NCBI GenBank assembly: GCA_035555435.1
Contig: DATMGN010000017.1
Span: 10,775-74,774, forward strand
Source: Microbacteriaceae bacterium
GTDB taxonomy: Bacteria > Actinomycetota > Actinomycetes > Actinomycetales > Microbacteriaceae
Length of the DNA: 64,000 bases
Direction: 5' to 3'
The notes under the pieces were generated by a model. The model saw only the letters and a list, made by a program, of their open reading frames with translations. It was not told where the DNA came from and made no database searches. Of the stretch, positions 25,304 to 61,293 are shown in pieces; the first letter of the stretch is position 1, and every line of letters starts with the position of its first letter. The position numbers and the translations under genes are program-made.

Positions 25304-25344
25304 GCCGCCTTAGCTCAGTCGGCAGAGCATCTCACTCGTAATGA
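25304..25344 (+). pseudogene. 5' half of host tRNA-Thr(CGT), interrupted at the anticodon loop by the prophage (attL)
   Basis: GCCGCCT-TA-GCTC-AGTCGGCA-GAGC-A-TCTCA-CTCGTAA-TGA. The following sequence does not form the anticodon-stem 3' strand or a T arm. The matching 3' half is at 61227-61265. Confidence 0.85.
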
Positions 25345-25634
25345 TGAGGACCAGACTCGGGGGCAGGCTCGGCACTAGGCGGTCCCCATAGGAGCCAGTT
25401 CTGATCGACGCCGGTCGCGGCGCTGACCTTGGTGACGACTTCGGTGATCTTCCTGGGGGAGACGCCGTTCTCATAGCGAGCCCAATCGTTCTGACCTAGG
25501 CCGCATTTGACCGATGCCTCGGTTTGGTTCCAGCTCTTCGTCTGGCGGACCATCGCCAAGCGCGTACCGAACTCCGACGCGGTCGGGATCCACGCGCGTT
25601 CGGTCGCCTCGGGTACTGCACTCTGTGTTGTCAT
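25332..25634 (-). CDS. XRE-family phage repressor, prophage (truncated) form, 100 aa
   Basis: MTTQSAVPEATERAWIPTASEFGTRLAMVRQTKSWNQTEASVKCGLGQNDWARYENGVSPRKITEVVTKVSAATGVDQNWLLWG... HTH_XRE pattern. ORF crosses attL and ends in tRNA-derived sequence. Confidence 0.8.
   Translation of the reverse strand: MTTQSAVPEATERAWIPTASEFGTRLAMVRQTKSWNQTEASVKCGLGQNDWARYENGVSPRKITEVVTKVSAATGVDQNWLLWGPPSAEPAPESGPHHYE
25338..25344. repeat. attL crossover core GTAATGA
   Basis: Identical 7-mer at 61227-61233. Flanks partly similar (CTCGTAATGATGAGGACC vs CTTGTAATGAGAAGGTC). Confidence 0.75.
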
Positions 25635-25763: not shown

Positions 25764-25952
25764 ATGACATCCGAAGTGTCGCATCTCACCACTAAGGAAG
25801 TGGCTAAGAGGTTCCGGGTCGATCCCTCGACCGTCCGCCGTTGGGCCGATTCCGGCTCCGTCCCGGCAACGAAGACACCGGGCGGTCGGTACCGGTTCGA
25901 CGCCGCCGACATCGACGCCCTCCTGACCTCCCCCGCGGAGAAGGCATCGTGA
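25764..25952 (+). CDS. excisionase-family (MerR-like) HTH DNA-binding protein, Xis/Cro candidate
   Basis: MTSEVSHLTTKEVAKRFRVDPSTVRRWADSGSVPATKTPGGRYRFDAADIDALL. Divergent from the repressor. Confidence 0.75.
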   Translation: MTSEVSHLTTKEVAKRFRVDPSTVRRWADSGSVPATKTPGGRYRFDAADIDALLTSPAEKAS

Positions 25953-51076: not shown

Positions 51077-53110
51077 GTGGCGAAAGACGTCCAGATTGAT
51101 CTGATCGTTGATCCGAAGAAGGCGATCAAGGGAATCGACGACGTTTCGGATCGGGCCGAAACAGCCTCCAAGGTCCTCGCTGGTCTCGGCGGGTTCGCTG
51201 CGGGCGCACTCGCGGTCGGTGCGGCGGGTGCTGCAGCGCTCGGCGGCGCGGTCGTGTCGGCGTATGCGGACTTCGAGCAGCTCGCTGGCGGTGTCGACAA
51301 GCTGTTCGGTGACGCGTCGGATTCGGTCATGGAGTACGCGTCGCGCGCTGCGGAGTCGGCGGGTCTGTCGACGAACCGCTACTTGGACACGGTCACGTCG
51401 TTCAGCGCGTCCCTGATCTCCGGTCTGGGCGGCGACCAGGCGAAGGCCGCGCAGATCGCGGACATCGCGATCACCGACATGGCCGATAACGCGAACACGT
51501 TCGGCACGTCGATGGAGATGCTCCAGACGACGTATCAGGGCTTCGCCAAGGGCCAGTTCGCGATGCTCGACAACCTCAAGCTCGGCTATGGCGGCACGGC
51601 CGGTGAGATGGCGCGCCTCATCAACGACTCCGGTGTGCTCAACGGTGCGTTCGAGGTGACCGCGCAGAACGTCAAGGACATTCCGTTCTCGACGATGGTC
51701 GAGGCGATTCACCAAGTCCAGACCGAGCTCAACATCACGGGCACGACGGCGAAGGAAGCCGCGTCGACGATCACTGGATCGTTCGAGGCGACCAAGGCGT
51801 CGCTCATGAACCTCGTCACTGGTCTCGGCGACGCGAACGCGGACTTCGATGCGCTCGTGAGCAGTCTCGCGACGAACGCCGGGAACCTCATCGCGAACGT
51901 CGCTGGGGTGCTCGAGCAGCTCGCGACCGGTCTGCCGCAGATCGTTCCGACGTTGCTCGCCGCGGTGGAGAAGCTCGTCCCGACGCTCCTCGAGGTCGGC
52001 GCGAGGCTCGTCGAGGCGGTCCTGGATGGCCTGATCAAGATGGCACCGGCACTGATCAGTGGAGCGGTCCCCCTCATCCTCAATCTCGTCACCGGTCTGC
52101 TGCGGCAGGTCCCCGCGCTCCTGACGGCGGGTGTGCAGATCGTCGTCGCGGTCGTGCAGGGCATTGCCCGGGCCCTACCGACGTTGATCCCGTCGGTCGT
52201 GAAGGCGATCGTCAACGGCATTCTCACGTTGACGTCGCCAACCAATCTGAACGCACTGCTCAAGGCGGGCCTCGGGTTGGTGACGGGACTCGTCAAGGGC
52301 ATCATCACGGCGTTGCCGATCATCATTGACGCACTGCCGACGATCATTCTCAACATCGTCAACTTTATTGTGGGCGCGATTCCGCAGCTGATTGATGCGG
52401 GTATTCAACTGTTCATGTCGATCGTTGCCGCTTTGCCGGACATCATCCACGGCATTGTTGCCGCGATTCCGAAGATCATCGTCGGCATCACGACCGCGTT
52501 GGTCGAGGCGATCCCGGCGCTCATCACGGGCGGGATCGAACTGTTCGTCGCGCTCATCGCCGAGCTGCCGACCATCATCGTCGAGATTGTTAAGGCGATT
52601 CCCGAGATCGTGGTCGGCATTGTCACGGCGTTCACGAAGCCGGAGACGATGGCGCGGATGGCGCAGGCCGGTATGAGTCTCATTCAGGGCCTCATCGACG
52701 GTATCGGCAGCATGGTCGGAGCGGTCGTGAAGTCTGTTGAGGATGTTGCGAACAGCATCGTCGGGGGCATCGCGGACTTCCTGGGCATCCACTCGCCGTC
52801 GACTGTGTTCGCGGACATTGGTCGTTACTCGATCATGGGCCTAGAGAAGGGTCTGAGTGGTCGGAACAACATCAGCTCGATCATGGGGAAGCTCTCCGGG
52901 CAAGTTGCTGGTGGTTTCGCTGGGGCCCTTGCGGCGGATGCGAAGATCACGGTCGCGCGTTCCTACGGTGCGGCGGACGAGTCCAGTGTCACCGCCCCAC
53001 GCTCGATCACTGTGAACAACACGTACAACGTGGGCGATCAGGATCCGCGTCTCGTGGGTCGTCAAGCTGGCCGTGAGGTCATGCGTCAGTTGGCTGGGGT
53101 GCTGGTGTGA
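51077..53110 (+). CDS. tape measure protein
   Basis: 677 aa. Ala/Gly/Leu/Ile-rich helical repeats. Position after the chaperones. Confidence 0.88.
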   Translation: MAKDVQIDLIVDPKKAIKGIDDVSDRAETASKVLAGLGGFAAGALAVGAAGAAALGGAVVSAYADFEQLAGGVDKLFGDASDSVMEYASRAAESAGLSTNRYLDTVTSFSASLISGLGGDQAKAAQIADIAITDMADNANTFGTSMEMLQTTYQGFAKGQFAMLDNLKLGYGGTAGEMARLINDSGVLNGAFEVTAQNVKDIPFSTMVEAIHQVQTELNITGTTAKEAASTITGSFEATKASLMNLVTGLGDANADFDALVSSLATNAGNLIANVAGVLEQLATGLPQIVPTLLAAVEKLVPTLLEVGARLVEAVLDGLIKMAPALISGAVPLILNLVTGLLRQVPALLTAGVQIVVAVVQGIARALPTLIPSVVKAIVNGILTLTSPTNLNALLKAGLGLVTGLVKGIITALPIIIDALPTIILNIVNFIVGAIPQLIDAGIQLFMSIVAALPDIIHGIVAAIPKIIVGITTALVEAIPALITGGIELFVALIAELPTIIVEIVKAIPEIVVGIVTAFTKPETMARMAQAGMSLIQGLIDGIGSMVGAVVKSVEDVANSIVGGIADFLGIHSPSTVFADIGRYSIMGLEKGLSGRNNISSIMGKLSGQVAGGFAGALAADAKITVARSYGAADESSVTAPRSITVNNTYNVGDQDPRLVGRQAGREVMRQLAGVLV

Positions 53111-60109: not shown

Positions 60110-60184
60110 TGGAGCCCTCGGTCAGGATTGAACTGACGGCCTTCCCATTACGAGTGGGATGCTCTACCACTGAGCTACGAGGGC
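60110..60184 (-). tRNA. phage-encoded tRNA-Thr (anticodon CGT), CCA encoded
   Basis: Manual cloverleaf: GCCCTCG-TA-GCTC-AGTGGTA-GAGC-A-TCCCA-CTCGTAA-TGGGA-AGGCC-GTCAG-TTCAATC-CTGAC-CGAGGGC-T-CCA. All four stems are fully paired. Confidence 0.92.
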
Positions 60185-60197
60185 GCGGTCCACGATC

Positions 60198-61052
60198 CTA
60201 CGCGGCGAGGCGTTCCGTTTCCAACTCGGCGGGGAGTTGCAGCACGTTGCTCGCCTCCTGCATCTTCCAGCCGCTGACGAGCGTGTAGATCTGCGTCGAC
60301 TGCACCGACTCGTGGCGCATCATCTCCTTCACCACGATCACGTCGATACCGTTCTCTAGGAGTTCGGTGGCGTGGTAGTGGCGCAGCGAATGAGGGGTGC
60401 TCCTGACCCCGGCGACGACCATCACATGGTGAATGGATGAGTGGACGGCTTTGCGGCTGACGTGCGGACTGTCGCCCTGGTAGGCGGGAAACCATAGGCC
60501 CTCACGCGGGAACCCGGCATTGGTCGCGTAGTCCTCCACGACGTGGCTGAGCGGAATCGGTTTTGTCTTCCCACCCTTGGACGGCACCCATACGACGCGC
60601 GCACCCCAGTCGATCCATGAGCCGTCGAACGCGGCGATCTCGAACGTGCGTAGGCCCATGAACGCGGCGAGGAGGATCATCATCCGCCCGCGTCGGCGCT
60701 TCACATGCGCGAGCATCGCGGCGAGCTGCGCGGGGGAGACGGGGTGGGGCACACCCTTGGGTCGGCTCATCACCGGCACTTCGTCCATCGGGTTCGTGCG
60801 CCGACGCTTAGACGCGACGAGCCACGCACAGTAGGACCGGAGTGCGGTTTGGTATGTCCACCGGGTGACGGCTGCGAGTCCTTTGCGTCCAAGGAATGCG
60901 ATGAGTTGCGCGGACGTGAACTTGAGCGGGTGCGCGCCGGAGAACGCGATGAACTGGCGCAGGATTCGCTCGCGTTCGGTGATGGTTCGTTCGCTCAGAT
61001 GTTTGACCTGTTGCCAGGCGCGCCAGTCGGCGCAGACGCGGTCAACGTGCAT
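60198..61052 (-). CDS. int: tyrosine recombinase / phage integrase
   Basis: 284 aa. ...HSLRHYHATELLENG...VQSTQIYTLV (HxxR...Y). C-terminus ...ELETERLAA. Confidence 0.92.
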   Translation of the reverse strand: MHVDRVCADWRAWQQVKHLSERTITERERILRQFIAFSGAHPLKFTSAQLIAFLGRKGLAAVTRWTYQTALRSYCAWLVASKRRRTNPMDEVPVMSRPKGVPHPVSPAQLAAMLAHVKRRRGRMMILLAAFMGLRTFEIAAFDGSWIDWGARVVWVPSKGGKTKPIPLSHVVEDYATNAGFPREGLWFPAYQGDSPHVSRKAVHSSIHHVMVVAGVRSTPHSLRHYHATELLENGIDVIVVKEMMRHESVQSTQIYTLVSGWKMQEASNVLQLPAELETERLAA

Positions 61053-61226
61053 GGGTCCTCCCTCGGGTCGGCGGATGTCAGGAGGCTAGGTCGGCGCGGC
61101 ATAGCGACACACGCCCAATAGGGGGGTTAGATTCGGGACCGCCCGCTCAGATGGGGTCCAGGACCTCTATGCGACCCGTGATCCGATCCAGGGTCCGATA
61201 GCGACCTCTCGGGGAGTGGTGGCCTT
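61053..61226. promoter_or_regulatory. attR phage arm (P arm of attP) with short repeats
   Basis: WWGCGACM at 61101, 61169 and 61198. GGTCC-A-GGACC palindrome at 61155-61165. GGGTCC at 61053, 61154 and 61191. Confidence 0.35.
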
Positions 61227-61265
61227 GTAATGAGAAGGTCGTGGGTTCGATTCCCACAGGCGGCT
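61227..61265 (+). pseudogene. 3' half of host tRNA-Thr(CGT) (attR core plus anticodon-stem 3' strand, variable loop, T arm, acceptor 3' strand)
   Basis: GTAA-TGAGA-AGGTC-GTGGG-TTCGATT-CCCAC-AGGCGGC-T. AGGCGGC pairs with GCCGCCT at 25304-25310 and TGAGA with TCTCA at 25330-25334. Confidence 0.85.
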
Positions 61266-61293
61266 CCCTTAGTCTCGAACGGATCACAAGGGA

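Follow-up and report, generated by a model that had tools for sequence, protein, structure and literature searches.

A Microbacteriaceae prophage in which tRNA-dependent lysogeny is probably built into an integration-dependent immunity cassette

Phages that disrupt the host tRNA gene used for integration and replace it with a tRNA of their own were described by Guerrero-Bustamante and Hatfull (mBio 2024; PMC10865867) under the name tRNA-dependent lysogeny. In these phages a tyrosine integrase acts on an attB inside a tRNA gene, the common core is short (~8-17 bp), integration leaves the tRNA unrestored, and lysogeny depends on a phage-encoded tRNA of matching isotype, as demonstrated experimentally in the mycobacteriophages Fionnbharth, LeBron and Gaia. 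The phages concerned are Fionnbharth (K4), Cain (K6), LeBron (L) and Gaia (X), together with the Gordonia phages BrutonGaster, OneUp and Mollymur, and the tRNAs used are tRNA-Lys-TTT, tRNA-Ile2-CAT and tRNA-Leu-CAA. A prophage of Lactobacillus johnsonii, Lj965, is cited in the same paper as another case in which the tRNA is not rebuilt and a cognate tRNA is carried, as in the prophage described here. Lj965 however infects a member of the Firmicutes, and that account says nothing of integration-dependent immunity in its case.

Integration-dependent immunity (Broussard et al. 2013, via PMC9262239 and PMC5559632) is treated as a separate phenomenon both in PMC10865867 and in a 2025 review. It is described for BPs, Brujita, Charlie, the cluster P phages (BigNuz) and Gordonia phages. 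Its elements are adjacent and co-oriented rep and int genes beside a divergent HTH gene, an attP inside rep, an attB in a tRNA gene, ssrA-like ends on Rep and Int, and a stop codon made by the junction. [quoted passage not shown] The tandem prophages prophiT36-2a/2b of M. abscessus T36 (PMC9934374, PLoS One 2023) are integration-dependent-immunity prophages at a tRNA-Thr attB, for which the attL tRNA was judged impaired and complementation by the tRNA-Thr(cgt) of prophiT36-2b, about 2 kb from attR, was speculated. A preliminary description of the locus reported here knew of no described case coupling the two systems. In spirit that statement does not hold, since disrupt-and-replace is established in PMC10865867 and the T36 work had already proposed complementation by a tRNA-Thr(cgt) in this setting. 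Our literature search returned no paper describing tRNA destruction by a single phage together with an attP in rep and a tRNA conserved in the int cassette. What is new here is the clean fusion of the two systems, the tRNA isotype (Thr-CGU), the integrase family and the host family, and not the principle.

The locus lies in a 64-kb stretch of metagenome-derived DNA from an uncultured Microbacteriaceae bacterium, hereafter the window. We put the probability that tRNA-dependent lysogeny is here built into an integration-dependent-immunity cassette at roughly three in four, judging from comparisons of sequence. The features on which this reading depends are the following (window coordinates, strand, identity and basis of assignment):

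25304-25337, plus strand: 5' portion of the split host gene for tRNA-Thr(CGT), up to anticodon C34 (sequence comparison, Rfam)
25338-25344, plus strand: attL core GTAATGA, 7 bp (junction comparison)
25332-25634, minus strand: immunity repressor in its truncated prophage form, 100 aa, with the C-terminus ...GPHHYE and stop (Pfam HTH_31, PHROG transcriptional repressor)
25345-61226, no strand: prophage, ~35.9 kb (GC shift, PHROGs and Pfam matches)
25764-25952, plus strand: divergent MerR/HTH_17 (Cro/Xis-like) gene beside rep (Pfam PF12728, 7.8e-15)
60110-60184, minus strand: phage tRNA-Thr(CGT), the proposed stand-in for the split host gene (ARAGORN, Rfam RF00005, cloverleaf fold, conservation after int)
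60185-60200, minus strand: int stop codon (TAG) and 13-nt spacer, TAGGATCGTGGACCGC (alignment of relatives)
60198-61052, minus strand: tyrosine integrase, 284 aa, without arm-binding domain (Pfam PF00589, 8.9e-21)
61167-61226, minus strand: detached 3' remnant of the viral rep ORF, KATTPREVAIGPWIGSRVA and stop (in frame with rep across the reconstructed attP)
61227-61233, plus strand: attR core GTAATGA, 7 bp, the overlap region, which spans part of the anticodon loop and stem (junction comparison)
61234-61267, plus strand: 3' portion of the host gene for tRNA-Thr(CGT), displaced by the prophage and comprising the 3' strand of the anticodon stem, the variable loop, the T arm and the 3' acceptor strand (contiguous with the 5' half in L013 and L014)

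The prophage is marked by a drop in GC content from ~0.70 to 0.63 between ~25.3 and ~61.2 kb. Its genes, assigned with PHROGs and Pfam, include a repressor, RecE/RecT, terminase, portal, major head, tape measure, M23 endolysin, holin-like genes, tRNA and int, a set that looks complete. The host tRNA-Thr(CGT) gene is split by the prophage and is rebuilt at neither junction. With the core counted, the 5' part at attL covers 25304-25344 (41 nt) and the 3' part at attR covers 61227-61267, of which 34 nt remain after the core; attL and attR overlap exactly only in GTAATGA, or over 10 bp with one mismatch when read as CTYGTAATGA. ARAGORN called a tRNA-Thr(cgt) when the host halves were joined, and no tRNA on attL, attR or the reconstructed attP. 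Two natural empty sites from other samples (L013 and L014), 98-99% identical to the window flanks, hold the intact host tRNA-Thr(CGT) with the exact sequence, between TetR and DUF3500 genes. The anticodon match between the phage tRNA and the gene it interrupts, first pointed out in the preliminary description, is confirmed by the joined halves and by these empty sites.

A closer examination of the junctions led to two further candidates that were both rejected. The hybrid sequence at attL (25304-25384, plus strand) matches the Rfam tRNA model with 29.1 bits against a gathering score of 29, the host 5' acceptor strand being paired with phage AGGCGGT and 27 nt being skipped at the place of the T arm; this hybrid has no T arm, and the match is indicated as chance rather than as a working tRNA. 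A decayed tRNA 3' half in attP gave an alignment p of only ~0.03-0.06 against shuffles, and nothing of the kind was found in the attPs of the closest relatives (L033 and L024). We also noticed that, in contigs originating from several sequencing runs, L015-L019 end at window positions 25340-25344 and L009 and L010 at 61256. Such ends at or near the att core suggest branching of the assembly graph, with lysogen and non-lysogen (or free phage) forms present in the same samples.

The organization of the cassette closely follows that of integration-dependent immunity. The rep and int genes are adjacent and co-oriented, attP lies within the rep ORF, and the gene order of endolysin, holin-like genes, int, rep and divergent MerR-like HTH gene is identical in Brujita, in which gp35 occupies the position of the HTH gene. 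The integrase is 40% identical, over 97% of the protein, to Brujita gp33 and the cluster P integrases, and gp33 likewise targets the anticodon loop of a tRNA-Thr. In the prophage the rep ORF crosses attL and takes its TGA stop from the anticodon stem of the host tRNA, while in the reconstructed attP it runs on in frame as ...HHYKATTPREVAIGPWIGSRVA and stop. Tails homologous to that of the window are present in the intact attP-form genes of L033 (...GPWIGSRVS and stop) and L024 (...GPWKNIA and stop). The placing of attP within the rep ORF is supported, as the preliminary description had it. Recombination takes place at the H-Y codons of rep, ...HY(K/Q), in the window, Brujita and BigNuz alike.

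The C-termini of both proteins resemble degradation tags. Viral Rep ends in -VA, -VS, -IA or -AA (...GSRVA in the window; compare -RVA in BigNuz and -HAA in Brujita), and Int ends in the ssrA-tag-like ...ERLAA, and all 5 close homologs keep the final -AA (-LAA/-RAA). The segment at 61167-61226 is a putative degradation tail that integration would take off Rep, and Rep and Int may be under proteolytic control through their C-terminal residues. For the HTH_17 gene of excisionase type at 25764-25952, a Cro-like and an Xis-like role are both conceivable; integration-dependent-immunity systems are described as working without a directionality factor. As far as the comparison goes, the cassette fits the published systems with one exception, which is that its core of 7 bp does not hold the tRNA 3' end. 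In Brujita and BigNuz the 3' half is encoded by rep, and the 5-6 kb of DNA read around int contain no tRNA, whereas the window prophage has no 3' half and a complete tRNA after int.

The tRNA is separated from the int stop codon (60198-60200) by a 13-nt gap and lies on the same strand. It is the only tRNA called by ARAGORN in the 64-kb window, is 75 nt long with an encoded CCA, matches the Rfam tRNA model RF00005 over its whole length (71.2 bits, E=1.5e-13) and folds into a clean cloverleaf (-28.7 kcal/mol, z=-2.8), so that the three methods agree on the intact gene that had been noticed initially. The stem differences from the host copy given at that time are also correct (GCCCTCG versus GCCGCCT in the acceptor stem, TCCCA versus TCTCA in the anticodon stem and GTCAG versus GTGGG in the T stem), and the gene is not a duplicate of the att sequence. 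Among three phage tRNA variants and the host copy, base pairs are retained at 100%; six pairs carry changes on both sides, a count reached in 0 of 500 shuffles, with none in slid controls. This pattern argues for selection on the phage gene to work as a tRNA, its intactness being held through compensatory changes. The pairs G1-C72 and C2-G71 and the anticodon (including G35 and U36) are invariant across the phage variants and the host; G1-C72, C2-G71, G35 and U36 are identity elements for ThrRS. The 7-nt anticodon loop CTCGTAA is the same in the host and in every phage variant.

One difference in the anticodon stem may have a bearing on the integrase. Pair 29-41 is C29-G41 in all phage tRNA variants and U29-A41 in the targeted host tRNAs, and the phage tRNA reads GTAATGG where attP and attB read GTAATGA. 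Heterology in the overlap region blocks exchange by tyrosine recombinases, and the change to C29-G41 may for this reason shield the phage tRNA from attack by the integrase encoded next to it.

The stop codon and spacer, TAGGATCGTGGACCGC, are nearly invariant among the relatives and better conserved than the last ~10 codons of int. TAGGAT within this stretch is a possible -10-like element or processing signal for the tRNA. Following integration, the rep promoter is separated from int and the tRNA. A promoter and terminator scan around the tRNA returned nothing; it used the sigma-70 consensus, and for promoters of actinobacteria such a result carries no information. [quoted passage not shown] It resembles a terminator for the late operon, and tRNA transcription arriving from the opposite side might likewise stop there.

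The association of this tRNA with int extends to the close relatives. All Int relatives of 71-100% identity with enough downstream sequence have a tRNA-Thr(CGT) directly after int, which, for these relatives, answers in the affirmative the earlier question of whether related phages carry it. In contigs from other samples with Int identities of 71-90% (L022/L023/L030, L032, L024-L026 and L027), the tRNA-Thr(cgt) begins 13-30 nt after int. In L027 a 17-nt insertion stands between the conserved stop and spacer and the tRNA, and L031 reaches its contig end after the first 26 nt of the tRNA. The attP forms seen in L033/L031 and L024-L026 have a TCATTAC core within a full-length rep ORF, and the tRNA 3' half is absent. 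L022, with an Int 88% identical to that of the window, is a different phage that occupies this site and shares its core; outside the host flank, att, int, the tRNA and a further ~75 nt it has essentially no similarity to the window (L022:1-2681). In L033:2466-3119 the DNA similarity to the window starts at the att core (61233 leftwards), and the N-termini of the repressors differ. The block of rep tail, int and tRNA therefore seems to behave as a mosaic module. The close Int subfamily comprises five integrase clusters at 90% identity only, all metagenomic, and for this reason the linkage of int and tRNA may partly reflect recent common descent.

An exact search of IMG/VR with the core of the phage tRNA gave 0 matches, and blastn against isolated phages gave no close tRNA. 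No Int relatives between 47% and 71% identity were found by profile search, and an Int scan of genome and viral contigs gave only relatives of 33-46% identity. P0021 (46% identity) was set aside as uninformative, being part of a multi-integrase element.

More distant relatives provide the comparison with the tRNA-rebuilding state. Six outgroups with Int identities of 35-47% (Brujita, BigNuz, the IMG/VR contig L001, L045, L047 and L051) encode the complete 3' half of tRNA-Thr within rep, and for Brujita and BigNuz this half is known to be in frame (GSRLGESNPRPIHYQ). The repressor of L045 is 60% identical to that of the window, and TCATTACAAGG recurs in L047. No phage tRNA was found around int in any of the six, in the DNA read of about 2-3 kb for the two phage records and 5-10 kb for the contigs. 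Two states are thus seen across the relatives, namely a short core with an own tRNA versus a full 3' half in rep with no phage tRNA, and their co-occurrence is strict, which is the pattern predicted if the phage tRNA replaces the host gene. The outgroups suggest that the 7-bp core and the phage tRNA were derived from the canonical state with the tRNA 3' half in rep, and this polarity bears, for the lineage of the window, on the evolutionary direction left open in PMC10865867.

A further group of integrases with 40-44% identity (L044, a Microbacteriaceae genome, 5800-5860; L005; and L034; a Leucobacter MAG and a JGI metagenome contig are among the sources) was observed next to a displaced tRNA-Thr 3' half. 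Their cores read TCATTAC or GTTTACAAGG, and in these three the sequence read beyond int contained no tRNA gene of the phage.

In crude sets of ORFs, threonine is most often encoded by ACG, with a share of 58% among the Thr codons of the host and 50% among those of the phage, at about 31-33 per 1000 codons.

The observations can be read in other ways. The window is a metagenome contig, and the split tRNA could in principle be an artefact of chimeric assembly, or the mark of a defective prophage at a secondary site. We consider this highly improbable: both att junctions were found again at 100% identity in independent assemblies (L007-L012), a second phage (L022) occupies the same site with the same core, junctions in other hosts (L027 and L044) have the same core, attP forms with this core were seen directly, and the prophage gene set looks complete. 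A more serious alternative, although still an unlikely one, is that the host can do without its tRNA-Thr(CGU), because it has another copy of the gene or because tRNA-Thr(UGU) reads ACG by wobble, and that the phage tRNA merely eases a cost or hitchhikes with int. The window covers only one tRNA locus, and the modified U34 of tRNA-Thr(UGU) can read ACG in some bacteria, both of which leave room for dispensability. Against it stand the compensatory changes by which the phage tRNA has been kept intact, its strict association with the loss of the 3' half from attP, and the rank of ACG as the top Thr codon. Actinobacteria, moreover, usually have minimal tRNA sets. The set of M. smegmatis is one such case (PMC10865867).

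The phage tRNA could instead serve chiefly in lytic growth, by codon supplementation or evasion of anticodon nucleases, its match to the attB isotype being incidental or a relic of an earlier host. This is a common explanation of phage tRNAs, as discussed in PMC10865867, and the sequence of the phage tRNA is unlike the copy of the present host. We nevertheless regard a mainly lytic role as quite improbable, even less likely than a dispensable host gene. The use of ACG is alike in phage and host, the CTCGTAA loop is the same as that of the host and so carries no nuclease-evading change, and the tRNA is the sole one in the phage, with a chance of about 1 in 45 that it would match the targeted anticodon at random. 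In addition, the stretches around int that were read in the six tRNA-rebuilding outgroups contain no phage tRNA. Replacement of the host tRNA by the phage tRNA is strongly suggested by the comparative evidence, that is, the strict co-occurrence, the compensatory changes and the prevalence of ACG. The functional replacement put forward in the preliminary description is, on this comparison, well supported and probable.

Under the preferred reading, tRNA-dependent lysogeny within an integration-dependent-immunity cassette, the phage module consists of rep, int and the tRNA. The attP is the 7-bp overlap GTAATGA, with short imperfect inverted repeats on either side, located in the rep ORF at codons H-Y-K, and the host tRNA-Thr(CGU) gene is the partner with whose anticodon loop the short armless Int recombines it. 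As a result of integration, Rep loses its C-terminal tail (...GPWIGSRVA), so that Rep ends at the TGA supplied by the tRNA and is presumably stable and active. The host tRNA is at the same time split beyond repair because attP has no tRNA 3' half, and the phage tRNA-Thr(CGU) would then provide ACG decoding in the lysogen. The phage tRNA would thereby be needed for a viable or fit lysogen, and loss of the prophage would be penalised unless excision is precise. Within this scheme, the sequences directly show the anatomy, the two junctions, the natural empty site, the attP forms of relatives, the conserved linkage of int and tRNA and the covariation in the tRNA, and we infer the tag-dependent proteolysis, the expression and charging of the phage tRNA, and the essentiality of the host gene.

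We regard as evenly balanced the wider proposal that a sublineage of Microbacteriaceae phages has fused two lysogeny controls in a portable cassette of rep tail, int and tRNA, derived from a canonical ancestor with the 3' half in rep. In such a cassette the repressor would need integration to become active, and integration itself would kill the cell or impose a cost on it if the linked tRNA-Thr(CGU) were not expressed, and C29-G41 may protect that tRNA from Int.

Compared with the phages of PMC10865867, the window prophage has the same combination of a tyrosine integrase with an attB in a tRNA gene, a core too short to rebuild that gene, and an own tRNA of the same isotype. The tRNA of Gaia also lies downstream of int, and related long-core phages without a tRNA are known in that system, the same contrast as among the relatives of the window phage. 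The isotype differs, being Thr-CGT in the window phage, and so does the integrase family. In the Fionnbharth group the enzymes are lambda-like and have an arm-binding domain as well as arm sites, while the window Int is armless. The mapped attPs of Fionnbharth and Boilgate are intergenic and upstream of int, whereas the attP of the window lies inside the rep ORF. The 284-aa length of Int, its tag-like C-terminus and the Microbacteriaceae host are likewise unlike those phages. The requirement for the tRNA was established experimentally in the phages of PMC10865867 and is only deduced here. The differences from prophiT36-2a/2b are of another kind. That tandem pair has a 40 bp core and rebuilds the tRNA with two acceptor-stem mismatches, whereas the window holds a single phage that destroys the tRNA outright; the tRNA of prophiT36-2b is absent from other MabB prophages, while that of the window is conserved in the int cassette across the sublineage.

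If the preferred reading is correct, tRNA-dependent lysogeny extends into an integration-dependent-immunity switch in which attP is additionally bound by rep coding. Prophage and attB finders that need long tRNA-derived cores would miss such phages. The compact module of rep tail, int and tRNA is also a possible basis for integration vectors in Microbacteriaceae.

Two minor observations were made along the way. Sub-threshold matches to the Rfam family 'Plastid-ycf2 5UTR' lie antisense to the phage tRNAs of L022, L023, L024, L025 and L027 and appear to be an artefact of a tRNA-like model. The tape-measure gene contains, at 52373-52955, units of ~25 nt repeated at spacings of 33 nt and 99 nt, which are ordinary tape-measure repeats.
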